A DNA stretch of 36,411 nucleotides from Promethearchaeota archaeon (GTDB lineage: Archaea; Asgardarchaeota; Lokiarchaeia; Sigyniarchaeales; SOKP01), in the NCBI GenBank assembly GCA_048938025.1, contig JBHLMP010000026.1, positions 18,600-55,010 on the forward strand. The letters run 5' to 3'. This document shows positions 13,156 to 27,592 of the stretch, in pieces. The position numbers and the translations under genes are program-made. A model generated the notes under the pieces. It saw only the letters and a program-made list of their open reading frames with translations. It made no database searches and was not told the DNA's origin. The number at the start of each line of letters is the position of its first letter. The stretch's first letter is position 1.

Positions 13156-15138
13156 TTATAATTCCTCCAATATTGCATCAATTTGCTTTTCATATTGAGG
13201 TTCTCGATAATATCTTAAAGTTATTGCTTCCGAAGGGCAATTAGCTAAACAAGATCCGCAACCTCTGCATAATATCTCGTTTACTTCCGCTCCATCATCC
13301 ATTAACTGTATTGCGTCATAAGGACAATTTAACTCACACAGACCACACTTCGCGCATTTTTCTTTATCAACAGTAGCACGAATTAATTTAATCCTATAAA
13401 TTTCCTTACCCATTAATCTTGAGAGTGACGATGCCGCCGCTCTACCTTGAGCTATTGACTCAGCTATAGATTTTGGACCCTGAGAGGCTCCTGCAAGAAC
13501 AATACCTGGAATTTTTGTATCTATTGGATTTAATCTTGAATGGAACTCTTTGAAAAATCCATCTTGACTGGTTTCAAGTTTTAATATCTTCTGAATTTTA
13601 TCAATTCCTTTCGCGGGAACCATTGATGCTGATAAAACAACTAAATCATATTCGAATTCTTTTATTCCTAAAGATTCCCTAAGAGTATTTTGGATGATGA
13701 CTTTAATATTATGAGTTTTAGGATCTTCTTGTAACTTGGAAATATTAGTTCTGATGTATCGAATACCTTCTTTTCGCGATGCCGTAAAGTATTCCTCATA
13801 ATCTTTACCAGCAGCTCTTATATCCATATATGCTACATCAATCTGAGTATCAGGATAATGTTGTTTAATTAATTTCGAGTTTTTAATTGCGATCATACAG
13901 CAAACACCTGAACTACAATACGTATTTTTGTTTAAATCTCTTGAACCTACACATTGAATAAATAGAACTCTTTTTGGTATTTTACCGTCAGATGGTCTGA
14001 AAAGATGTCCAAGTGTGGGTCCGTTAGGAGCTAAAATTCTTTCTAGTTTCAATTCTGTAATTACATTTGGATATATATTATAGCCAAGATAGCCTGTTTC
14101 TGGTTCGTATTCATCCCACCCTGTTGCTACAAGAACCGATCCTACTTTTAAAGTAATAAGTTCATCTTGTTGATCAAAATTAATTGCATCTAATTCACAG
14201 GCTTTCTGGCATAATCCACATTTAATACATTGGTTCATATCTATTTGAGCTATAGAAGGGACTGCTTGAGCAAAAGAAACATAGATTGCTTTTCTTGGAT
14301 TCATACCTTCATTGAACTCATCATAACCATAAACAGGACAAGGATCTATACAAGCTCCACACCCATTACATTCGTTTGTAACATATCGTGCTCTTTTCCT
14401 GATTGTTACGTTAAAGTTTCCCACGAATCCAGATATTTCTTCCACCTCACTATAAGTATAAAGATTCACTCCAGTAGTTCTTGAAGCTTGAAGCATGACC
14501 GGCCCAAGAATTCATATACTGCAGTCATCTGTAGGAAATGTTCTATCTAGCATTGCCATTTTTCCGCCAATAGTAGGATTCTTCTCAACTAGATGGACTT
14601 CAAACCCTTGTTCTGCTAAATCAATACCAGCAGTTAATCCGGCGACACCCCCACCTATTATTAATGCTTTTTGAGTTATATCTACTTCTTTTACTAAAAT
14701 TTTCTCTAAAACAGCAGCTCTAGCGACTCCGGATCTAATAGCATCTTCTGCTACCTTTTGAGCACCAGGTTTATCATTTCGATGTACAAAACTAGCATGC
14801 TCTCTAATATTTACAAATTCTAAGTATGAAGGATCTAATCCCATCGACTCTAAAACGCTTTGAAACACAGGCTCATGAGTTATAGGGGTGCATGATGCTA
14901 CAATCAATCTATTTGCATTATTTTCAATCATATTTTCTTTTATAAATTCAGCTCCAGGCTCCGTACATAGACTAATATAATCAGAAGCTCCTACAACATT
15001 AGGTAATGTTTTTGAAAATTCAACTAAAGCTTTACAATCTATTATCTCTGCTATATTTATACCTCACTGACAGACAGCAACATAAATTTTCGGTATTTCT
15101 CCGATATCTTTAATTTCATCGTGTTTGGTTTCTACCAT
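13156..15138 (-). CDS. hdrA: Heterodisulfide reductase subunit A, selenoprotein with 2 Sec
   Basis: One frame from ATG 15138 through TGA 15064-15066 (VAVCQ-U-GINIA) and TGA 14512-14514 (FPTDDCSI-U-ILGP) to TAA 13156; 660 aa. FAD motif GGGVAG, FIQCVGSRD, four CxxCxxC...C ferredoxin motifs. Joins track ORFs 14512..14931 and 13156..14496. Confidence 0.96.
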
Positions 15139-17190: not shown

Positions 17191-17353
17191 TTTGGGTTGA
17201 GAAATAAAATTCATGAAAAATCAATCCAAAGTGAAAAAAAATGTTTATTTTTAACATAAAAAGATCGAATTGTGTATTTAGCACAAATCGATTTTATGAA
17301 TAAATTCTGAAATATTCTTCTTTTATTCTCCTAAAAAAATAGGGGGTAATATT
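17191..17353 (+). promoter_or_regulatory. Structured 5' leader with three hairpins, the last covering the SD-like GGGGGU
   Basis: UUUGGGUUGA/UCAAUCCAAA (17191-17230); CAUAAA..AUCGA.UUGUGU/GCACAA.UCGAU-UUUAUG (17255-17298); UCUCCUA/UAGGGGG (17327-17346). Confidence 0.5.
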
Positions 17354-19099
17354 TTGAAAAAAATTAAAAGACAAAATTCAAGAAGTAATAACGATAAAAG
17401 GATATTGATTGCTTGCATAGGTCAATGTGTACATGTTGCGGGGGCTCATAATTTTATGAACATCGCTACCCACCTCGGTTATGAATGTAAATTTTTAGGT
17501 CCAGCAACCCCAATTTGGAAATTAATAAATGAAATGCAAAATTATAACCCTGGAATTGTTGGATTAAGCTATCGTCTTACCCCATCAACCGTAAAACCAT
17601 TACTTAAGAACTTTTTTAAAAATTTTGAAAATATAGAAAACAAACCAAGTAAGTTATACTTTGCAGGAACTTCAGAAGTCATCAATGTTGCAAAAGAGTT
17701 CAAACAGTTTAATGAATACTTCATAGGAGGTGAATCAAAACATAGAGTGATCGCAATTTTAAAAGATGAGAAACAACATGTTAAAAGCAAATTAGACATT
17801 CCAATGGATTTAATATCAAGAATAGAATGGAAAAAGCCATATCCGATAATTAGAGCGCATTTTGGTTTATCCAATTTTAAAGAAACCGTAAGAGGAATCA
17901 AAATAATAGCGAATGCTGAAGTTTTAGATGTGATTTCCATTGCCCCTGATCAAAACACGCAGGCTAATTATTTTCATCCTGAGCAGCAAATTCAAGAGTT
18001 ATCTGGAGCTGGAGGTGTTCCCTTAAGAACTGAGGAGGATTTTCTTAAATTACATAAAGCAAGATTAACAGGAAACCATCCACTGCTAAGAATTTATGCC
18101 GGAACAAGAGATTTCATTAAACTAGCTGAATTATACCAACGCACAATAAAAAATGTTTGGGCAGCTATTCCTATTTTCTGGTTTAATCAAATGGATGGGA
18201 GAGGACCCCTATCCTTAAAAGAATCTATAAAACAACACTTAAAAACAATTCAATGGTATGCTGAAAATGATGTACCAGTAGAGATAAACGATCCTCACCA
18301 TTGGAGTCTTAGAGATGCACCAGATGTAATCGCTGTTGCGGATATGTATTTATCAGGAATTATAGCAAAGAAATTAGGTGTTAAATATTTTATAGCACAA
18401 TACATGTTTAATACTCCTCCATCAAGCTCGCTTGACATGGATTTCGCCAAAATTTTGGCTAAAGATGAGCTTCTTCAAACTTTAGTAGATAATTCATTTT
18501 CAGTAATTAAACAAGTTAGAACCGGATTGGCAAGTTTTCCAATAGATTTAGATAAGGCTAAAGGACAGCTAGCTGCAGCCACTTTAATACAATTAGCAAT
18601 AAAACCTGATATTGTTCATGTTGTTAGTTATTCTGAAGCTAATCATGCTGCTCGTCCAGATGATATTATTGAAAGTTGCAACATTGTGGATCAAGTAATA
18701 AATACTTCATTTTCCAGTAAATTAAATTTTATTGATAAGAAAATTAGGAAAAGGAAAGAAGAATTAATAAGAGAAGCCCAATGGATTATTAATCTGATTC
18801 CTCGCTTAGCAAAAACATATGAGGAACAAAAAAACCCGTTGATAAACTATAAAATTTTAAATCGGCTCGTAGAATATGGAATTTTTGATGCTCCTCATTT
18901 AAAGAATAATCCATTTGCATTAGGGAAAATTAAAACGAAAATTATTAATGGTGCTTGTTGCTCTTGGGACATTAAACACCAAAAGGTAATTAATGAGAGA
19001 GAAAGGATTAAAAAAATCGTTGAAAAGTGTTCTAATATATTAATATCAGAAGATAAATTCCAAAAAGAATTCTTTTATGGTAAGGTGATGAATGAATGA
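17354..19099 (+). CDS. Cobalamin-binding domain fused to a glutamate mutase E-like TIM barrel (uncharacterised B12-dependent enzyme)
   Basis: N-terminal IACIGQCVHVAG...VGLSYRL B12-binding fold; downstream blocks PLLRIYAGTRD..LAE, AKKLGVK, FPIDLDKAKG..AAT, SEA, GIFDAP are collinear with GlmE as recalled. Confidence 0.75.
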   Translation: MKKIKRQNSRSNNDKRILIACIGQCVHVAGAHNFMNIATHLGYECKFLGPATPIWKLINEMQNYNPGIVGLSYRLTPSTVKPLLKNFFKNFENIENKPSKLYFAGTSEVINVAKEFKQFNEYFIGGESKHRVIAILKDEKQHVKSKLDIPMDLISRIEWKKPYPIIRAHFGLSNFKETVRGIKIIANAEVLDVISIAPDQNTQANYFHPEQQIQELSGAGGVPLRTEEDFLKLHKARLTGNHPLLRIYAGTRDFIKLAELYQRTIKNVWAAIPIFWFNQMDGRGPLSLKESIKQHLKTIQWYAENDVPVEINDPHHWSLRDAPDVIAVADMYLSGIIAKKLGVKYFIAQYMFNTPPSSSLDMDFAKILAKDELLQTLVDNSFSVIKQVRTGLASFPIDLDKAKGQLAAATLIQLAIKPDIVHVVSYSEANHAARPDDIIESCNIVDQVINTSFSSKLNFIDKKIRKRKEELIREAQWIINLIPRLAKTYEEQKNPLINYKILNRLVEYGIFDAPHLKNNPFALGKIKTKIINGACCSWDIKHQKVINERERIKKIVEKCSNILISEDKFQKEFFYGKVMNE

Positions 19100-20367
19100 G
19101 ATTTTGCGTAATTGGTGCAGGATCAGGTGGTAGAGCATTTGCTGCCTATATTTCTTCGAAAGGATTCCCAGTCTCACTTTATAACCGCTCTTATTCAAGA
19201 ATAAGTGCTATTAAACAAAAAGGAGGAATTAAAGCAAAAGGTGCACTAGAAGGTTTTTTTCCTCTTGAATTAATTACGCAAAACTTAAAATTGGCTATTA
19301 AAGACGCAGATGTAATAATGATTGTCATTCCTGCTTCAGGTCATAAGAGTATTGCAAAAAAATTGGCTCCTATATTATCTAATAATCAAATCATAATATT
19401 AAATCCAGGAAGAACATTTGGTTCAGTAGAAGTCAAAAGAATTATTGATAAGAAAAACGGGAAGAATTTCATTAGAGTTGGTGAGACTCAGACACTCCTT
19501 TTTACGTCAAGAGAATTAGCTGGAAATGAGGTTAATATAATTACAATTAAAGATGCAGTTGATTTTTCAACTTTTCCCGGTAAATTTACATTTTTAGTAT
19601 ATGATTTGTTAAAAGAAGTATTCCCTCAACTTATTCCTGTTGAGAATTACCTCGAAGTGACTTTAAATAATATAGGAATGTTATTACATCCTGCGATATC
19701 TTTATTAAATGCAGGTATGATGGATTTTGGTAAAAAATTTAAGTTTTATAAAGAAGGAGCTACTCCACGAGTATGTGAAGTACTCGAGAATATTGAATTA
19801 GAGCTAAATGAAATTTTTTTAAAGTTAGGATTAAAACAATTAAAATATCATAAATGGGTAAAAAAGTCCTATGGTGTTAATACAGATAAGATTTATGAAT
19901 CTATTCAAAATGTCGAAGCATACAAAAACATAAATGCTCCTGATAAATTGATAACAAGATATTTTACAGAAGATGTATCTACGGGGCTTGTACCAGTTGT
20001 TTCATTAGCCAAGTTCTTAAATATATCCACACCTACAATTAACGCAATAATTCATTTATCTAGTATTTTATGTGGTGAAGATTTTAAGAAAACAGGAAGG
20101 ACCTTACAAAACCTCAAATTATTTGATTTCTTTGTAAACTATTTAAAAGATTTAAAAATTTTGGAATGGAACTTAAAAGGGTATTACAAAATAAAACAAA
20201 TTTTTTCACATCCAAGAGATTTTAAGATTTGTTCTATTTGTGACACTATAAATTCATTAAATAACAAATTTTGCTGGGTTTGTCATTTCAATAATTTTAG
20301 AGAATTAAAACTAGAAGATAGAATGATAATTAATAAAAAGGATCCTAATGTACTGATAAGAACCTAA
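19096..20367 (+). CDS. NAD(P)-dependent opine (octopine/nopaline-family) dehydrogenase with C-terminal zinc-ribbon
   Basis: GAGSGG Rossmann motif, LNPGRTFG, NIGMLLHP, FYKEGATP, RYFTEDVSTGLVP; tail CSIC-x10-CWVC; ATGA overlap with the upstream gene. Confidence 0.88.
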   Translation: MRFCVIGAGSGGRAFAAYISSKGFPVSLYNRSYSRISAIKQKGGIKAKGALEGFFPLELITQNLKLAIKDADVIMIVIPASGHKSIAKKLAPILSNNQIIILNPGRTFGSVEVKRIIDKKNGKNFIRVGETQTLLFTSRELAGNEVNIITIKDAVDFSTFPGKFTFLVYDLLKEVFPQLIPVENYLEVTLNNIGMLLHPAISLLNAGMMDFGKKFKFYKEGATPRVCEVLENIELELNEIFLKLGLKQLKYHKWVKKSYGVNTDKIYESIQNVEAYKNINAPDKLITRYFTEDVSTGLVPVVSLAKFLNISTPTINAIIHLSSILCGEDFKKTGRTLQNLKLFDFFVNYLKDLKILEWNLKGYYKIKQIFSHPRDFKICSICDTINSLNNKFCWVCHFNNFRELKLEDRMIINKKDPNVLIRT

Positions 20368-20543
20368 ATTTTTTTTAATATAGGGCATATAAAATATGCT
20401 ACATTTTAGCAATCCTTTCGATTACTATAGATTAACGTTTGATAATGATTATTCTCATAAAAAACTAACATTAAATCATAATTAACGAATGAAGTTTAAA
20501 TTTGAAATGAAATTGCTTAAAATAGAATGGAAGGAAAATCTTC

Positions 20544-22070: not shown

Positions 22071-22718
22071 ATGTCCCAAGAGGAGATATATACAGAAATG
22101 TGCAATGCAATTGTTAATTTAGATGAACAAAAAGCTATAAATCTAGCTAACAAGGCAATTAATGAAGACATAGATTTACTTAAAGTTATTGAGAATGGAT
22201 ATGCTGCTGGGATTAGACGAGTAGGGGAATTATGGGAAGACGGAGAATATTTCTTACCAGAATTAATGAAAGGAGCACAGATTATGCAAAATTGCATGGA
22301 CATCATTATTCCCCATCTCCAGAAAGGTTCAGAAAGAGTAAATCTTGGAACTGTAGTAATCGCAACGATTGAGGGTGATATCCACTCAATTGGGAAAACA
22401 ATTGTTGCTACAATGTTAAGAGCTTATGGTTTTGAAGTTTTTGATTTAGGAGCAGATGTTCCAGCTGAAAAAATTATTGACATTGCGATTGAAAAGAATG
22501 CAGATATTATTGGTGTTTCAGCACTCTTAACAACAACGATGATTGGTCAGAAAAAAATTATTGATCTTTTAAAAGAAAAAAATCTAGCAGACAAGTTCAA
22601 GGTAATTTTTGGTGGCGCTCCAGTAACAACTACATGGGTAGAAGAATGTAACGCTGATGGATTTGCTGATAATGCTATTGAAGCTGTCAAATTAGTGAAA
22701 TCTCTTTTAGATAAATAA
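22071..22718 (+). CDS. Methyltransferase cognate corrinoid protein (MttC/MtbC-like)
   Basis: Cap domain GEYFLPEL, GDIHSIGK (DxHxxG), SALLTTT, GGAP. Confidence 0.93.
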   Translation: MSQEEIYTEMCNAIVNLDEQKAINLANKAINEDIDLLKVIENGYAAGIRRVGELWEDGEYFLPELMKGAQIMQNCMDIIIPHLQKGSERVNLGTVVIATIEGDIHSIGKTIVATMLRAYGFEVFDLGADVPAEKIIDIAIEKNADIIGVSALLTTTMIGQKKIIDLLKEKNLADKFKVIFGGAPVTTTWVEECNADGFADNAIEAVKLVKSLLDK

Positions 22719-22749
22719 AAATTGAAGGTTTTAGAGAGGTTAGATACAA

Positions 22750-23628
22750 TTGTTATTTAATGACTGGTTGAAAGATAATTCTAAAATTATTCTATTTAAT
22801 GGTGCTATGGGTACAGAATTAATTAAAAGAGGACTAACACCTGGGAAAATTCCAGATTTAATGAACATCGAAAATCCTGATATGATTATTGATGTTCATA
22901 AATCATATTATAAGGCAGGTTCTGATATGTGCCAAACGAATACCTTTGGTTCAACACCAATGAATTTAAAGCGATATAAACTAGACAATCAAATTGAAGA
23001 CATTATTACAAAAGCATTAGAAAATATTAGAAAAGCATGTCCTGAAGGTCATTTAATTGTTGCAGATATTGGTCCTACTGGTGAATTTAGATTACCTGTA
23101 GGAAGTGCTACTACTGAACAGTGGCATTCTAGTTTTTCTATTCAAGCAAAATTATTAGAGAAAGGAGTTGATCTTTGGCATATTGAAACGATTTCCGATA
23201 TCGAAGAGATGATAACAGCGATTAAAGCAATTAGAGGTGTTTCTAAAAAACCGATAATCGCGTCAATGACATATAATAAAACAAAACGAGGATTTTTTAC
23301 AATAATGGGTGATTCTTTGGAAAAATGCATTCAATTATTAGAAAATGAAAAAGTAGATGTAATTGGAGCGAATTGCACCATTGGTTCTAAAGAAATGGTT
23401 GAATTATTTAAAATTGCCGTTAATCTTACTAATAAACCGTTTTCAGTAAAACCTAATGCTGGAAAGCCAAGAATTGAGGGAACAAGGACATATTATGAAC
23501 AACCAATAGAAGATTTTGCCAAAGATATTTATGAAATGATACAAAATGGCGCTAAAATAGTAGGGGGATGTTGTGGGACGTCTCCTCAAACAATTAGAGA
23601 ACTTAGAAGAATTATTGATTCGATTTAA
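22750..23628 (+). CDS. Stand-alone homocysteine S-methyltransferase domain (MetH N-terminal-like)
   Basis: GAMGTEL, TNTFG, DIGPTG, ET..D, GANC, KPNAG.P, GGCCG zinc ligands; TTG start. Confidence 0.92.
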   Translation: MLFNDWLKDNSKIILFNGAMGTELIKRGLTPGKIPDLMNIENPDMIIDVHKSYYKAGSDMCQTNTFGSTPMNLKRYKLDNQIEDIITKALENIRKACPEGHLIVADIGPTGEFRLPVGSATTEQWHSSFSIQAKLLEKGVDLWHIETISDIEEMITAIKAIRGVSKKPIIASMTYNKTKRGFFTIMGDSLEKCIQLLENEKVDVIGANCTIGSKEMVELFKIAVNLTNKPFSVKPNAGKPRIEGTRTYYEQPIEDFAKDIYEMIQNGAKIVGGCCGTSPQTIRELRRIIDSI

Positions 23629-23658
23629 AATTAAAACTCAAGAGGAGAAAATTTTATC

Positions 23659-25086
23659 ATGCCAATTATTAGACCAAAAATTAATTTGTTAGATACTGAA
23701 CATAAGAAATCAATTTTTAATGAAGCTAAATCAATATTAGAGACTCAAGGAGTATTCGTTGAAAATCAAGAAGCAAAAGAGTTATTTAACCAGCATGAAA
23801 TTGATTTTAAAGGTTCACGTTATTTTATTCCACATGATTTAGTAGATAAATGTTTAGCCTCTGTACCTAGAGAAATAACTTTGTACGATAGAGAAGGAAA
23901 TGAGTATATTCATTTAAAGGATGATGAAGTTCATTTCAATCCTGGTTCTGCTGCGATATTTATTCTTGATGAAAATACTGGAATAATTAGAGAAGCTTTG
24001 TCTAAAGATTTTATTCGCTTTTCAAAAGTCGTTGAGCACTTAAAATTTATTGAAGCTCAAAGTACAGCTTTAATTTATAAAGATGTTCCTAATGTAGCTC
24101 AGGACTGGCATCGATTATATATAGCTTTATCTAATTGTTATAAACCGGTAGTAACCGGAACATTTCGTAAAGAAAGTTTTTCAATCATGCGGGAAATACT
24201 ATTAACTTGCAGGTTATCTGAAAATGATTTGGTAAAAAAACCACTAGCTATCTTTGACGCATGTCCAAGTCCTCCATTGAAGTGGTCTGATCTTACAACT
24301 CAATCTTTAATTGATGCGGCTAAAAGTATGATACCATCTGAATTTGTCTCAATGCCCTTAGCAGGTGCGAGCGCACCCATAACATTAATAGGATCTATTA
24401 CACAACATTGTGCGGAATGCTTGGCTGGAGTTGTAATTGCTCAATTAACAAAGTCTGGTGCACCCTTAGTATGGGGAGGTTCTCCGGCAGTATTTGATAT
24501 GAAACAAGGTACTACTCCCATGGGTGCAATAGAGACAATGATGATAAACATCGGAGATATTGAAATGGGAAAATTCTTGAATATGCCTACTCATGCATAT
24601 ATGAGTTTAAGTGATTCCAAAGTTCCAGATAGCCAAGCAGGTTTTGAAGCAGGAATAGGAGCTATTTTAGCAGCACTTGCTGGAAATAATATGGTTTCTG
24701 GTCCTGGGATGTTAGATTTTGAATCTACGCAAAGTATAGAAAAATTAATAATTGATAATGAAATTGTAGGAATGGTAAAACGATTTATCCAAGGGATAGA
24801 GGATTATGGTTCTCCTTTTGCATCTGAAATTATAAAAGATTATGAAGAAACTCAAGAACTATTATCTCATCCAACAACTTTAAAACATTTTAGAAAAGAA
24901 TTATTCATTCCAAGTCCTATTATTGATAGAACAACTCGTGATACTTGGAAAGCATTAGGATCTAAATCTGCAAGAAAAAGAGCTAGAGAAGAGGCTGCTA
25001 AATTAGTAAACAAAGCACCGATAAGGCCTATTGATGAATCTCTTAATAAAGATTTAGATAATATAGTGGAAAATGCATTAAAATAA
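23659..25086 (+). CDS. MttB-superfamily methylamine/betaine:corrinoid methyltransferase, non-pyrrolysine
   Basis: SPPLKW, MPLAGASAPITLIG, DSKVPDSQAGFE, GMLDFE...EKLIIDNEI; no in-frame TAG. Confidence 0.9.
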   Translation: MPIIRPKINLLDTEHKKSIFNEAKSILETQGVFVENQEAKELFNQHEIDFKGSRYFIPHDLVDKCLASVPREITLYDREGNEYIHLKDDEVHFNPGSAAIFILDENTGIIREALSKDFIRFSKVVEHLKFIEAQSTALIYKDVPNVAQDWHRLYIALSNCYKPVVTGTFRKESFSIMREILLTCRLSENDLVKKPLAIFDACPSPPLKWSDLTTQSLIDAAKSMIPSEFVSMPLAGASAPITLIGSITQHCAECLAGVVIAQLTKSGAPLVWGGSPAVFDMKQGTTPMGAIETMMINIGDIEMGKFLNMPTHAYMSLSDSKVPDSQAGFEAGIGAILAALAGNNMVSGPGMLDFESTQSIEKLIIDNEIVGMVKRFIQGIEDYGSPFASEIIKDYEETQELLSHPTTLKHFRKELFIPSPIIDRTTRDTWKALGSKSARKRAREEAAKLVNKAPIRPIDESLNKDLDNIVENALK

Positions 25087-25489: not shown

Positions 25490-25508
25490 AGAGGTGAATA
25501 AAAAGAAT

Positions 25509-26675
25509 ATGAAAAATAATAAAAGGTATTTACCAGAAGGGAAATATGTAATGATGGGAAATGTTGCAATGGCAGAAGGTGCATTAGCTGCCGGATTGAG
25601 CTTTTTTGGAGGTTATCCTATAACTCCTTCAACTGAGATCATAGAACATCTCTCCAAAAGATTGTTAGAGGTTGGAGGAAGTTGTATGCAAATGGAAGAT
25701 GAATTAGCATCAATAAACGCTGTCATCGGGGCTTCTTTAGTTGGTGCAAAAGCAATGACGGCAACTTCAGGGCCAGGTCTTTCTTTAATGGTTGAAACAA
25801 TTTCAATGGCAGCAAATTTAGAAATTCCATTCGTTTTATGTGACGTTCAGCGCGTTGGCCCTGGTAGTCATGGACCTGTAACTGCCCCTCATCATAATGA
25901 TTTAGGATTGATACGTTTTGCGGGTCATGGGGAGTTTCAAATTATTGCATTAGCACCTATGAACTGTCAAGAACTCTTTGATTTAACGATACAGGCTTTT
26001 AATCTTGCTGAGACTTATCGATGTCCAGTTTTTATTCTCTCTGATGCCTATTTAGGACATCTTCATGAACCTATTTATATTCCACCAAAAGAAGAATTAA
26101 TGAAGAGAGTTATTAATCGTGAATTACCTCAAGATTATACTAAGAAGTTCTCTTATAAGAATGATAGTACTGGAGAATACGTGATCCCAAACCCTCCAAT
26201 AATCGGTACAGATTATTTTCCATTAATGCCTCTTCATCTACCTCATAACTATGAAGGGCTTCCTAAAGCTGATATGTTAGGTTTCATGGAAGTTCTTATT
26301 GAAAAGATAAAAACAAATATAGATGAAATTTCTATAATAGATGAATACAGATTGGACGATGTGGATATTGTTATTATTGCATATGGTCTACCAGTAAGAA
26401 CCTGTTATCATGCAGTTGATATAGCCAGGAAGGAAGGAATAAAAGTTGGAATATTTAGATTAGTAACAGTATGGCCTTTTCCAGATGAAAAAGTAAAGAA
26501 AGTAGTTAAAAATGCTAAAGCCATTATTGTCCCAGAGTTAAATTACACAGGATTCATTGCTGAACAAGTAGAAAGAGTAACTAATCCTGAAACACCAATA
26601 ATTAAAATTCCTAAAGTAGGTGAATTTCATCATCCAAATGATATATTAAAAGTTATAAAGGAGGTCTCAAAATAA
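25509..26675 (+). CDS. 2-oxoacid:ferredoxin oxidoreductase alpha subunit (KorA-like)
   Basis: GYPITPSTE, QMEDE, TATSGPG, QRVGP, VPELN. ATG at 25509 preferred because the GTG at 25494 lies inside the SD-like GAGGTGA. Confidence 0.93.
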   Translation: MKNNKRYLPEGKYVMMGNVAMAEGALAAGLSFFGGYPITPSTEIIEHLSKRLLEVGGSCMQMEDELASINAVIGASLVGAKAMTATSGPGLSLMVETISMAANLEIPFVLCDVQRVGPGSHGPVTAPHHNDLGLIRFAGHGEFQIIALAPMNCQELFDLTIQAFNLAETYRCPVFILSDAYLGHLHEPIYIPPKEELMKRVINRELPQDYTKKFSYKNDSTGEYVIPNPPIIGTDYFPLMPLHLPHNYEGLPKADMLGFMEVLIEKIKTNIDEISIIDEYRLDDVDIVIIAYGLPVRTCYHAVDIARKEGIKVGIFRLVTVWPFPDEKVKKVVKNAKAIIVPELNYTGFIAEQVERVTNPETPIIKIPKVGEFHHPNDILKVIKEVSK

Positions 26676-27592
26676 TGTCAGGCATGGGTCCAGTGTATCC
26701 AAAGGAAAAACCTGATCATCCTTATGTCCAATTTTCCACAGGAGGATATCTTTTTAGAAATTATAACTCTCTTTTTTGCGCAGGATGTGGTTATGGTATT
26801 ATTGGTCACATTTTCACTCGTGTATTTGAGGATGATAAAATAGATCCAAAACTATTTCCATTAATTATAGGAATTGGTTGTTATACTCAATTAGTGACAT
26901 TAGTGCATCATGCTTCTCAAAAATTTTTTGCACTTCATGGTCGAGCACCAGCAGTAGCTACAGGGATGAAGATGGTGAATCCTAAATTAAAACCCATTAT
27001 ATTTTCTGGTGATGGAGATTGTTTAGGAATTGGTGGAAACCATTTTATTCATATTTGTCGTAGAAATCTTGATTGTGTTATTTTTATTTTTAATAATAGT
27101 ATTTATGGAATGACAGGAGGCCAAGCTGCTCCAACAACTTTGTATGGTGCAGAAAGCACAACTACACCATATAAGATGTTTGAAAACAGAATTGATGGCG
27201 TACAACTAGCTTTAGTTGCTGGTGCAACGTATATAGCAAGAACAACGGTAGCACATCCGCGAACACTTATGAAATATTTTAGAAAAGCATTAAAACATAA
27301 AGGTACATCTGTAATTGAAGTAATAACTCCCTGTGTTACTTACTTTGGAAGGAAAAATTTAGATCGTTTAGGAGTGGAATATCTAGATATAAGAGGTGAA
27401 AAAATGGATAATACAGGAAGAATGCTAGATTGGATAAAAAGGAACAGTGTACGTATCAATCAAGCAAAATTCATGACAGAAGAAGAATTATTCAATAATT
27501 ATATTATTGGAGAATTCAGATATGAGCCTGATAAACCAGAATATTCTGAAGAATATGCTAAAATTCAAAAAATCGCAATGGAGGAAAAGTAA
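26675..27592 (+). CDS. 2-oxoacid:ferredoxin oxidoreductase beta subunit (KorB-like)
   Basis: FCAGCG, GIGC, HGRA, TPP motif GDGD...NN, YGMTGGQ, PCVT; TAATG overlap with the alpha subunit. Confidence 0.94.
   Translation: MSGMGPVYPKEKPDHPYVQFSTGGYLFRNYNSLFCAGCGYGIIGHIFTRVFEDDKIDPKLFPLIIGIGCYTQLVTLVHHASQKFFALHGRAPAVATGMKMVNPKLKPIIFSGDGDCLGIGGNHFIHICRRNLDCVIFIFNNSIYGMTGGQAAPTTLYGAESTTTPYKMFENRIDGVQLALVAGATYIARTTVAHPRTLMKYFRKALKHKGTSVIEVITPCVTYFGRKNLDRLGVEYLDIRGEKMDNTGRMLDWIKRNSVRINQAKFMTEEELFNNYIIGEFRYEPDKPEYSEEYAKIQKIAMEEK

Follow-up and report, generated by a model that had tools for sequence, protein, structure and literature searches.

A predicted adenosylcobalamin isomerase of the glutamate mutase lineage and its opine dehydrogenase partner in Asgard archaea and bacteria

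The two overlapping genes described here encode a predicted adenosylcobalamin isomerase with a substrate other than glutamate (ORF1) and an enzyme of the opine dehydrogenase family (ORF2). Our proposal, on which our judgment is evenly balanced, is that the two enzymes together make an unusual amino dicarboxylic acid with an osmotic or cell-envelope use. We infer the order of the reactions, the nature of the substrate and the physiological role of the pair. The genes lie in the window, which is the whole stretch of 36,411 nucleotides analyzed from a Promethearchaeota archaeon (GCA_048938025.1, contig JBHLMP010000026.1), and their features are collected in Table 1. The initial annotation of this DNA had described a B12-binding domain and a barrel in one ORF, joined by an ATGA overlap to an opine dehydrogenase gene, and its coordinates were exact. 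The hexamer GGTGAT precedes the ATGA overlap, and the T run past ORF2 is a possible archaeal terminator, both as read from the sequence.

Table 1. Features of the gene pair, numbered from the first nucleotide of the window.
Feature	Position	Strand	Description
Shine-Dalgarno-like GGGGGT	17342-17347	+	6 nt 5' of the ORF1 TTG start; read from sequence
ORF1	17354-19099	+	581 aa, TTG start; fused B12-binding domain and GlmE-like TIM barrel
B12-binding Rossmann domain of ORF1	17387-17773	+	Residues ~12-140
TIM-barrel domain of ORF1	17802-19033	+	Residues ~150-560; secondary structure of model
ATGA overlap	19096-19099	+	ORF1 stop TGA 19097-19099, ORF2 start ATG 19096-19098
ORF2	19096-20367	+	423 aa; opine dehydrogenase family, CENDH-like
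CxxC...CxxC in ORF2 C-terminal tail	20230-20283	+	Residues 379-382 and 393-396; sequence
T run	20369-20376	+	8 nt, just past the ORF2 stop; read from sequence

The pair is not an undescribed system, as the initial annotation had called it, since it was flagged twice in 2009. It was listed as a predicted novel B12-dependent family that is always next to pfam02317 (Zhang, Rodionov, Gelfand, Gladyshev 2009, BMC Genomics 10:78, PMC2667541), and the same pair was noted as operon Hore_09740/09750 when the genome of Halothermothrix orenii was described (PMC2626281). The family was then known from 11 bacteria in four phyla, or from a handful of thermophilic genera, and the passages of both papers that treat it recognize only the B12 domain and propose no reaction (PMC2667541, PMC2626281). 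The loci in our analysis contain the same family and the same neighbor, and they reproduce the pairing reported in those passages. No measured activity, cofactor form or substrate was found for the ORF1 family in the literature searched.

The two domains of ORF1 fall outside the reach of the Pfam families. Over residues 16-78 the B12-binding family scored 21.8 bits (cut-off 32.1), and over residues 297-485 Met_asp_mut_E (PF06368) scored 26.1 bits (cut-off 26.6). In the genome-wide search ORF1 was the sole match to PF06368, at 25.6 bits and again under the cut-off. A profile of the ORF1 family matches B12 domains in the PDB, and alignment to 4jgi, 1bmt and 9cbr places His27 (codon 17432-17434), within the motif C-V-H-V-A-G, on the cobalamin-ligand His of DxHxxG. 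Adenosylcobalamin isomerases of the base-off/His-on class carry DxHxxG, SxL and GG motifs; ORF1 has SYRL and F-x-G-T motifs, and across the set designated A1 conservation is complete or reaches at least 90% at residues H27, G30, S72, Y73, R74, L75, F103 and G105. The ORF1 clade has Cys in place of the Asp of DxHxxG, and a sister clade retains DPHTxG. In the barrel, R167, G171, D192, S195, G221, G240, Y248, D281, E310, D324, H422 and G533 are invariant in the family. Orthologues across Asgard metagenome-assembled genomes are 65-88% identical to ORF1.

An AlphaFold2 model of ORF1 (pLDDT 89.4) supports a barrel of the adenosylcobalamin-isomerase type, nearest to GlmE. The best PDB match of the model was GlmE 1cb7_B, and also 6h9e_B (Foldseek E 2.5e-17; TM 0.57/0.67), followed by ornithine and lysine aminomutases (E 1e-11 to 1e-10) and methylmalonyl-CoA mutase. 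Methionine synthase was matched through the B12 domain only (TMq ~0.2), and among the top 40 Foldseek matches every one covering the barrel was a GlmE-, OAM-, LAM- or MCM-type isomerase. The radical-isomerase-type barrel of the initial annotation agrees with this ranking, and the methyltransferase fold that it had named as a test was not what the model resembled. We infer that ORF1 uses adenosyl- rather than methylcobalamin. Indirect support comes from the MutL/GlmL fusions of paralogues and from an adenosyltransferase of the CobA type encoded in the host genome, which is 96.7% complete and also has three MCM-like genes.

Glutamate mutase GlmS/GlmE (Clostridium cochlearium, 1cb7/1ccw) shares with ORF1 a TIM barrel and a B12 domain of Rossmann type with a His at the ligand position, and GlmL/MutL, the reactivase-like protein that accompanies it, is fused to relatives of ORF1. 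However, ORF1 holds both subunits in one chain with the B12 domain first, its motif is CxHxxG instead of DxHxxG, and its partner is an opine dehydrogenase instead of methylaspartase. When aligned to canonical GlmE with hhalign (probability 27.7%, 347 columns, a GlmE profile of only two sequences), ORF1 is collinear with all four GlmE blocks named in the initial annotation, each of which is found in chain 1cb7_B. In this alignment R66, R100 and R149 of GlmE pair with H169, Q203 and Y248 of ORF1, and E171 falls in a gap, although this mapping may be a few positions off because the alignment is weak and the GlmE profile holds two sequences. We take Arg66, Arg100, Arg149 and Glu171 to be the glutamate-binding residues of GlmE, with the numbering checked here against 1cb7_B, and their pairing with His, Gln, Tyr and a gap agrees with the loss suspected in the initial annotation. 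Arg167 and Arg246 of ORF1 sit two residues ahead of Arg positions of GlmE and could still provide carboxylate binding. In addition, ORF1 scored 14.9 bits with TIGR01503, for which the cut-off is 390.1, and canonical GlmE occurs together with the ORF1 family in Tepidanaerobacter acetatoxydans and Clostridiaceae 35-E11 (GlmE at 778 and 768 bits). Thus, ORF1 is not a glutamate mutase, since it lies under the family cut-offs, the substrate Arg residues are lost and two bacteria hold both proteins. The reported absence of methylaspartase and glmL from the window extends to the whole host genome, in which MutL, canonical GlmE and methylaspartase all gave no match above cut-off.

ORF2 matched Octopine_DH (PF02317) at 134.3 bits (cut-off 30) and NAD_Gly3P_dh_N at 43.7 bits, and an NAD(P)-binding GAGSGG motif lies at its N-terminus. 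It is a close homologue of the N-(1-D-carboxyethyl)-L-norvaline dehydrogenase of Arthrobacter sp. 1C (1bg6; E 1.2e-77, residues 3-343). The columns of His202, Arg292 and Asp297 of 1bg6, its catalytic residues, are identical in ORF2 in the printed alignment, and the corresponding H198, R288 and D293 are invariant across 21 orthologues. On this homology ORF2 is a genuine member of the opine dehydrogenase family, as the initial annotation held. It differs from the 1bg6 enzyme in being paired with a B12 enzyme gene and in carrying a Cys-rich tail of 75 residues, which is confined to the closest orthologues (423-aa versus 366-375-aa forms) and whose CxxC...CxxC motif is possibly a zinc ribbon.

The two genes co-occur and adjoin across Archaea and Bacteria, in agreement with the co-occurrence that the initial annotation had proposed to profile. 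Of 400 Asgard genomes, 160 contained the B12 gene. Both genes occurred together in 154, a single one occurred in 17 (B12 gene only in 6, opine dehydrogenase only in 11), and neither in 229. In 127 of the 133 Asgard genomes with both listed, the two genes were neighbors with the same orientation, in varying order (B12 gene first in 66 pairs, opine dehydrogenase first in 63). This distribution is patchy even within one genus (16 of 53 genomes). A species-representative genome collection gave at least 586 species matches to the ORF1 family, bacterial and archaeal, and an opine dehydrogenase was present at 74 of 80 loci, taken as the best 80 of these matches. We regard the pair in Asgard archaea as an accessory trait that anaerobic bacteria also possess. 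Judging from record titles, carriers of the ORF1 family are mostly anaerobic fermenters. In the window itself, corrinoid methyltransferase genes lie at 22071-25086 and 2-oxoacid:ferredoxin oxidoreductase genes at 25494-27592. Besides the two genes, nothing was conserved nearby in 20 Asgard loci and the window, so these loci offer no local clue to the substrate.

The bacterial loci have further conserved neighbors. Among the best 80 of the at least 586 species matches, AsnB was downstream at 21 loci and a Ddl-like ATP-grasp ligase was nearby at 15. The AsnB of these operons scored as a true asparagine synthase B (642 bits, cut-off 499), and it may simply make asparagine. One ORF1 homologue carries a fused ATP-grasp domain. 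Three paralogous clades were distinguished (linked to opine dehydrogenase, in polysaccharide clusters and MutL-fused), and each was seen beside an opine-dehydrogenase-type partner. Among the matches listed, all 120 of 120 long homologues (~1220 aa) were fused to MutL/GlmL (PF13941), with ~31% identity over 94% of the ORF1 query, and at the single locus analyzed an Octopine_DH gene precedes this form. The sister clade has its own Octopine_DH at 55 of 75 metagenome loci and is located in polysaccharide gene clusters with ATP-grasps, DegT, CapD-like, Bac_transf and glycosyltransferases.

A c-di-AMP riboswitch was identified with Rfam directly upstream at seven of eight Bacillota loci. A profile built from those seven matched 36 of 80 loci, and all nine of the matches that were re-tested exceeded the Rfam gathering threshold. 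The carriers are Bacillota and one MAG labeled Chloroflexota; the riboswitch was found at 0 of 9 loci from other phyla, and it was not found in the window or in Asgard loci L001-L023. The c-di-AMP riboswitch is tied to osmotic and cell-wall genes, and archaea lack peptidoglycan. An osmotic or envelope role may therefore not extend to archaea.

Our preferred reading is that ORF1 and ORF2 would form a self-contained two-enzyme module. ORF1 would be a radical isomerase of the glutamate mutase lineage in which the active site has been remodeled and no longer takes glutamate but some other substrate. ORF2 would use NAD(P)H to condense an amino acid with a 2-oxoacid, for which pyruvate is the likeliest candidate, or carry out the reverse, and its product would be an N-(1-D-carboxyalkyl) amino acid. 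Because the opine dehydrogenase partner is constant, the chemistry is narrowed to secondary-amine or imine dicarboxylates. First, the opine dehydrogenase would form the secondary-amine dicarboxylate. Secondly, the 5'-deoxyadenosyl radical in the B12 enzyme would abstract a hydrogen, and a 1,2-rearrangement of this dicarboxylate would follow; alternatively, the B12 enzyme may work on the amino acid just ahead of the condensation. Third, the outcome would be a non-standard amino dicarboxylic acid. In bacteria the amide-forming Ddl-like ATP-grasp ligases and AsnB would take over this product, and the module would be on at low c-di-AMP, which would place it in osmotic adaptation or cell-envelope building. 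In the Asgard archaeon the module would stand alone as an accessory two-gene operon.

Other readings of the pair were considered. In a catabolic module, which we think unlikely, the B12 enzyme would move an amino group or the carbon skeleton of a free amino acid and the dehydrogenase would then oxidize the product, feeding amino-acid fermentation in both Asgard archaea and anaerobic bacteria. Pairs of an aminomutase followed by a dehydrogenase do exist, for example 2,4-diaminopentanoate dehydrogenase, which acts after ornithine aminomutase. The fermentative carriers and the 2-oxoacid:ferredoxin oxidoreductase genes of the window would suit this reading, as would the rank of ornithine 4,5-aminomutase and lysine 5,6-aminomutase as next-best structural matches, which share with ORF1 the adenosylcobalamin architecture of TIM barrel plus Rossmann domain. 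However, these aminomutases hold PLP by a Lys in the B12 domain, and no conserved PLP-holding Lys was seen in the B12 domain of ORF1, nor were other PLP-binding features recognized in it. The dehydrogenase is of another family than in the ornithine and lysine aminomutase systems, and no fermentation genes lie near the pair: neither thiolase, CoA-transferase nor other downstream catabolic genes were conserved at the 20 Asgard loci and the window or at the 80 bacterial loci. The conserved bacterial neighbors are instead biosynthetic amide-forming enzymes, and the riboswitch is linked to osmotic and cell-wall genes, not to fermentation.

A more doubtful reading is that the pair is a new aminomutase system with pyruvate in place of PLP; the initial annotation had likewise raised an opine or imine as the possible substrate, with a 2-oxoacid adduct in the role of PLP. 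The opine dehydrogenase would attach pyruvate to a common alpha-amino acid as an N-(1-carboxyethyl) handle, the B12 enzyme would shift the substituted nitrogen to the neighboring carbon, and the same dehydrogenase would remove the handle, freeing a beta-amino acid (e.g., beta-glutamate or beta-alanine) and regenerating pyruvate and NAD(P)H. The net conversion would be of an alpha- to a beta- or branched amino acid. Such a cycle needs two genes and two are conserved, strictly paired in both gene orders, and the c-di-AMP link to osmotic control is consistent with it, beta-amino acids being osmolytes in thermophiles and methanogens. The conserved barrel Arg residues (R167, R283, R320, R389 and R467) would also suit a polycarboxylate. 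Against it, the cycle is drawn from chemical reasoning alone, a 2-oxoacid handle is without known precedent, and the data indicate no specific amino acid; we consider it improbable. If it were true, the handle would stay in place while the B12 enzyme shifted either the substituted nitrogen or the carbon skeleton, the product, a beta- or branched amino acid, would be an osmolyte or envelope building block, and the three paralogous clades would be a hidden radiation of 'opine mutases.'

It is very unlikely that ORF1 is a corrinoid-dependent methyltransferase, as suggested by 'methionine synthase,' the name that many orthologues bear at NCBI, by the likeness of the B12 domain to MetH and corrinoid proteins and by the plentiful corrinoid methyltransferase genes of the window. 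The metH model TIGR02082 matched no more than residues 5-81, at 12.8 bits (cut-off 1010.85), the barrel matches isomerases and not methyltransferase barrels, paralogues are fused to the GlmL/MutL family, and Pfam identified no homocysteine, folate or AdoMet domains in ORF1; this candidate was largely refuted on these four grounds. Lastly, an ordinary glutamate mutase in fused form has next to no probability, for although GlmE is the top structural match, the weak Pfam match is to its family and JGI names a few orthologues 'glutamate mutase epsilon subunit,' the scores lie under every family cut-off, the substrate residues are not retained, true GlmE stands beside the ORF1 family in two genomes and the host genome has no methylaspartase or MutL match above cut-off.

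Relative to 2009, the barrel of GlmE type, the occurrence of orthologues in Asgard archaea (160 of 400 genomes), the at least 586 species matches, the riboswitch for c-di-AMP, the fusions to MutL and to ATP-grasp and the sister clade of the polysaccharide clusters are new here. To our knowledge the reactions described for adenosylcobalamin enzymes number only about a dozen, and the ORF1 family is a large, old and uncharacterized branch of adenosylcobalamin enzymes. With the riboswitch comes a physiological setting that can be tested, namely stress of the osmotic or cell-envelope kind. Solving the pair would add a new B12 reaction, give a first cellular role to bacterial and archaeal opine dehydrogenases and correct a widespread 'methionine synthase' label.

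ORF1, the B12 gene, scores just below threshold with the Pfam models B12-binding (residues 16-78, 21.8 bits against a cut-off of 32.1) and Met_asp_mut_E (residues 297-485, 26.1 bits against 26.6), and no NCBIfam model fits it: TIGR01503, the model of the glutamate mutase E subunit (GlmE), gave 14.9 against 390.1 and metH gave 12.8 against 1010.85. ESM Atlas returned only unnamed or "cobalamin B12-binding" clusters (Bacillota, Bacteroidota), plus one MutL cluster. Sequence searches of the PDB with the ORF1 protein and with a 30-sequence profile identified B12 domains only and never matched the barrel, so the link for the barrel comes from its fold and from weak profile matches. The fold was predicted with AlphaFold2 from an alignment of 30 sequences (mean pLDDT 89.4, pTM 0.84). 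The predicted barrel is that of an adenosylcobalamin isomerase and not that of a methyltransferase, for two reasons. First, Foldseek ranked the glutamate mutase E chain 1cb7_B at the top of the PDB (E 2.5e-17), followed by ornithine 4,5-aminomutase, lysine 5,6-aminomutase, methylmalonyl-CoA mutase, 2-hydroxyisobutyryl-CoA mutase and IcmF. Secondly, corrinoid proteins and methionine synthase matched the small N-terminal domain only. A methyltransferase, which would share that domain, is thus already unlikely, given the metH score and the isomerase matches of the barrel.

The B12 domain reads C-V-H-V-A-G and keeps the His of the DxHxxG position. This residue, His27, falls on the ligand His in alignments to 4jgi, 1bmt and 9cbr and is conserved in at least 90% of the family; the Asp of DxHxxG is replaced by Cys in the ORF1 clade but present in a sister clade.

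ORF1 was compared with two canonical GlmE genes from carriers of the ORF1 family, Tepidanaerobacter acetatoxydans and Clostridiaceae 35-E11, which score 778 and 768 bits with PF06368. The T. acetatoxydans protein matches 1cb7_B with E 4.6e-214, and the numbering of the two is identical over the first ~270 residues. The profile-profile alignment of the ORF1 family with both GlmE is of low probability (27.7%) and collinear over 347 columns, and it reproduces all four blocks that the initial annotation had matched to GlmE. In the same 27.7%-probability alignment, GlmE Arg66, Arg100 and Arg149 lie opposite the family-conserved His169, Gln203 and Tyr248, Glu171 meets a gap, Tyr181 lies opposite the invariant Asp281, and ORF1 Arg167 and Arg246 stand two residues ahead of two GlmE arginines. 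The predicted fold is like that of GlmE (1cb7_B), whereas its glutamate-binding arginines and catalytic Glu appear replaced or gapped in ORF1, as had been suspected by eye. From these alignments, the ORF1 pocket seems to be located as in GlmE but rebuilt. A plain glutamate mutase, to which the first structural match would point, is already unlikely, since ORF1 is below the TIGR01503 and Met_asp_mut_E cut-offs, the substrate residues appear replaced, and a search of the whole genome found neither MutL nor a canonical GlmE, nor any methylaspartase that passes its cut-off; the absence of methylaspartase and glmL, reported earlier for the window, thus extends to the genome. A PduO-type adenosyltransferase was not found in the genome. 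A CobA-type adenosyltransferase and three MCM-like genes are present, which implies that the organism both makes and uses adenosylcobalamin.

Fusions to MutL/GlmL, the reactivase-like protein of glutamate mutase, are the strongest indirect sign that the family would carry out adenosylcobalamin radical chemistry needing a reactivase-type helper. At E 1e-10 there are 240 homologues of more than 1017 aa, and all 120 of these that were listed carry MutL/GlmL (PF13941) after a full B12-plus-barrel module. One 863-aa homologue is a fusion with an ATP-grasp domain. In the single genome inspected for context, from the Anaerolineae (locus L090, 9988-15953), an RpiR/SIS regulator, an Octopine_DH gene and a 1281-aa MutL-fused paralogue stand in a row, the fused gene directly after its own Octopine_DH gene. 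A 555-aa family member that lacks a close opine dehydrogenase (ODH) of its own lies 2.4 kb upstream of this row.

ORF2 is a clear Octopine_DH member (134.3 bits). Its residues 3-343 align to the Arthrobacter N-(1-D-carboxyethyl)-L-norvaline dehydrogenase (CENDH) 1bg6 (E 1.2e-77), and it shares with that enzyme the residues at the positions of His202, Arg292 and Asp297, which we take to be catalytic. A C-terminal tail with CxxC...CxxC is confined to the closest orthologues, which have 423 aa; most other members have 366-375 aa.

The overlap of a B12-barrel ORF with an opine dehydrogenase was confirmed by the ORF coordinates, the ATGA common to the ORF1 stop and the ORF2 start, Pfam and Foldseek. 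The genes on either side, for an OMP-decarboxylase-family protein (upstream) and for histidyl-tRNA synthetase (downstream), are on the opposite strand, and ORF1 and ORF2 therefore form a two-gene unit; a run of eight T lies directly 3' of ORF2. The GC content of the window is low, about 30%. A complex prediction for ORF1 residues 12-565 with ORF2 residues 1-350 (score 0.00, mark 0.32) weighs neither way.

Positions of the pair and of nearby features in the window
Feature	Position	Strand	Remarks
ORF1	17354-19099	+	581 aa; TTG start, GGGGGT upstream
ORF2	19096-20367	+	423 aa
ORF2 C-terminal tail	20131-20364	+	residues 346-423
Second cobalamin system	22071-25086	+	in a row: corrinoid protein (B12-binding and B12-binding_2), homocysteine-S-methyltransferase-family gene, MttB-family gene
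MttB-family ORF	23659-25086	+	475 aa
PYLIS_3 match	24609-24706	+	Rfam, 49.9 bits; within the MttB-family ORF
HdrA-like ORF	14512-14931	-	one frame (13156-14931) with the next HdrA-like ORF
HdrA-like ORF	13156-14496	-	
In-frame TGA	14512-14514	-	between the two HdrA-like ORFs

Two other features of the window were observed. The second cobalamin system is unrelated to the pair and lies 1.7 kb from it. Its MttB-family ORF is open throughout without an in-frame TAG, so that it probably encodes an MttB relative without pyrrolysine, and the PYLIS_3 match would reflect a resemblance of its coding sequence to that element. Read-through of the TGA in the HdrA-like frame gives FPTDDCSIUILGPVM, which looks from the sequence like selenocysteine at a conserved Cys position; HdrA is a known selenoprotein in Lokiarchaeota.

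The pairing was examined in 400 Asgard genomes, counting the B12 gene at E at most 1e-10 and the ODH at E at most 1e-20. The B12 gene was present in 160 genomes and the ODH in 165; 154 had both, six the B12 gene only, 11 the ODH only and 229 neither. Adjacency was counted in the 133 genomes having both matches among the 150 places listed per search. Among these matches the genes lie within 300 bp on the same strand in 127 genomes, and the six others include contig-edge cases, so the two genes do co-occur beyond this genome. The B12 gene comes first in 66 of the listed pairs and the ODH in 63, and the occurrence of both orders argues for selection on the pairing itself. No third conserved gene was found in 20 fetched Asgard loci and the window, picked for having both genes; only the B12 gene and the ODH recur. 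The pair looks like an accessory function because its distribution is patchy: in the genus of the window 16 of 53 genomes carry it, and several Asgard genomes at 95-99% completeness have neither gene. One Asgard genome (G266, contig C23, 3190-16683) holds two B12-ODH pairs ~9 kb apart. Selenocysteine in the B12 gene was considered for some Asgard genomes flagged "1 TGA"; in the one case inspected, locus L019, the TGA sits upstream of the start and is therefore not Sec.

Beyond the 400 Asgard genomes, a profile of mid-distance relatives gave at least 586 confirmed species hits among species-representative genomes. The best 80 of these include Bacillota (Thermoanaerobacter, Tepidanaerobacter, Symbiobacterium, Halanaerobiales and others), Planctomycetota, Chloroflexota, Ignavibacteria, Bacteroidales, Bipolaricaulota, Aminicenantes and Truepera, with one Methanomicrobia and one Promethearchaeota genome. 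Of the 80 loci, 74 have an ODH homologue, which with few exceptions directly precedes the B12 gene on the same strand and in many cases overlaps it; 72 loci fall in one ODH group, and two matches are distant (29% identity in L030, 26% in L090). Three of the six loci without ODH (L028, L029 and L087) are short contigs with no upstream room; L032, L033 and L083 have room, yet no ODH was found. In 21 of the 80 loci the next gene downstream is a true asparagine synthase B, which scores 642 bits where the cut-off is 499. A D-Ala-D-Ala-ligase-like ATP-grasp gene, scoring under the Ddl cut-offs (199-208 bits against 243), is near the pair in 15 and in the same operon in about ten. Lgt, Lnt and a thioesterase recur within small groups of related genomes.

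The c-di-AMP riboswitch switches on expression at low c-di-AMP levels, and its regulon consists mostly of potassium and osmolyte transport and cell-wall remodelling genes. In seven of eight Bacillota loci, Rfam recognised this riboswitch (RF00379) immediately 5' of the ODH, at 100-114 bits where the gathering score is 38; in one Bacillota locus it lies upstream of an ATP-grasp gene that precedes the ODH. It was found in none of nine loci from other phyla and not near the pair in the window. An nhmmer profile of the seven RF00379 hits matched in 36 of the 80 loci, without exception at the operon head and on the coding strand, and all nine weaker hits that were re-tested pass the Rfam gathering score. 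Matches occurred in 35 of the 47 Bacillota-labelled loci (counted by eye from record titles); there was no match in the five Halanaerobiales loci, nor in the window or the Asgard loci L001-L023.

The same profile matched just upstream in four of 75 metagenome loci (L112-L186) with a sister clade of the ORF1 family, three of which were re-tested and confirmed by Rfam. Sister-clade proteins have ~612 aa and a DPHTxG motif, and a distant Octopine_DH gene (~424 aa) is present in 55 of the 75 loci. These genes belong to long clusters, all on one strand, that also encode ATP-grasp ligases of two kinds, a DegT-type aminotransferase, a CapD-like dehydratase, an initiating sugar transferase, glycosyltransferases and an aldo-keto reductase. 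The clusters are surface-polysaccharide clusters, most simply read as making an unusual acid that is then amide-linked to an amino sugar.

The pair had been proposed as an undescribed system, and this did not hold: two 2009 papers, by Zhang et al. (PMC2667541) and on the Halothermothrix orenii genome (PMC2626281), already mention it, the former as a predicted novel B12-dependent family with pfam02317 as its constant neighbour, the latter as an operon, Hore_09740/09750, restricted to thermophilic anaerobes. In a Thermoanaerobacter transcriptome study, the ODH (Teth514_2108) is up-regulated in an ethanol-adapted strain (PMC3751872). A full-text literature search, with most subscription journals outside its scope, found no functional study of the pair, no link between pair and riboswitch and no mention in Asgard papers. 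The proposal of an adenosylcobalamin mutase with a new substrate was right in kind, but the pair had been in print before.

What can be said most safely is that ORF1 belongs to the glutamate-mutase lineage as an adenosylcobalamin isomerase for a new substrate, and that ORF2 is a CENDH-type opine dehydrogenase acting on the same small molecule. Beyond this, we infer which compound is the substrate, in what order the reactions run and what the pair would do in an archaeon lacking peptidoglycan. Most likely, the dehydrogenase would form an N-(1-carboxyalkyl) amino acid, and the B12 enzyme would rearrange this compound, or the amino acid just before condensation. An unusual amino dicarboxylic acid would result and, either as such or once ligated through an amide bond, may serve osmotic adaptation or envelope building. 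Rivals to this reading are a fermentative route, in which the mutase would act first and the dehydrogenase second, and a catalytic cycle with pyruvate in place of PLP, the idea of the initial annotation. The pair is a real and widespread B12 enzyme system with a fixed partner, and the new clues make the B12-ODH reaction directly testable.
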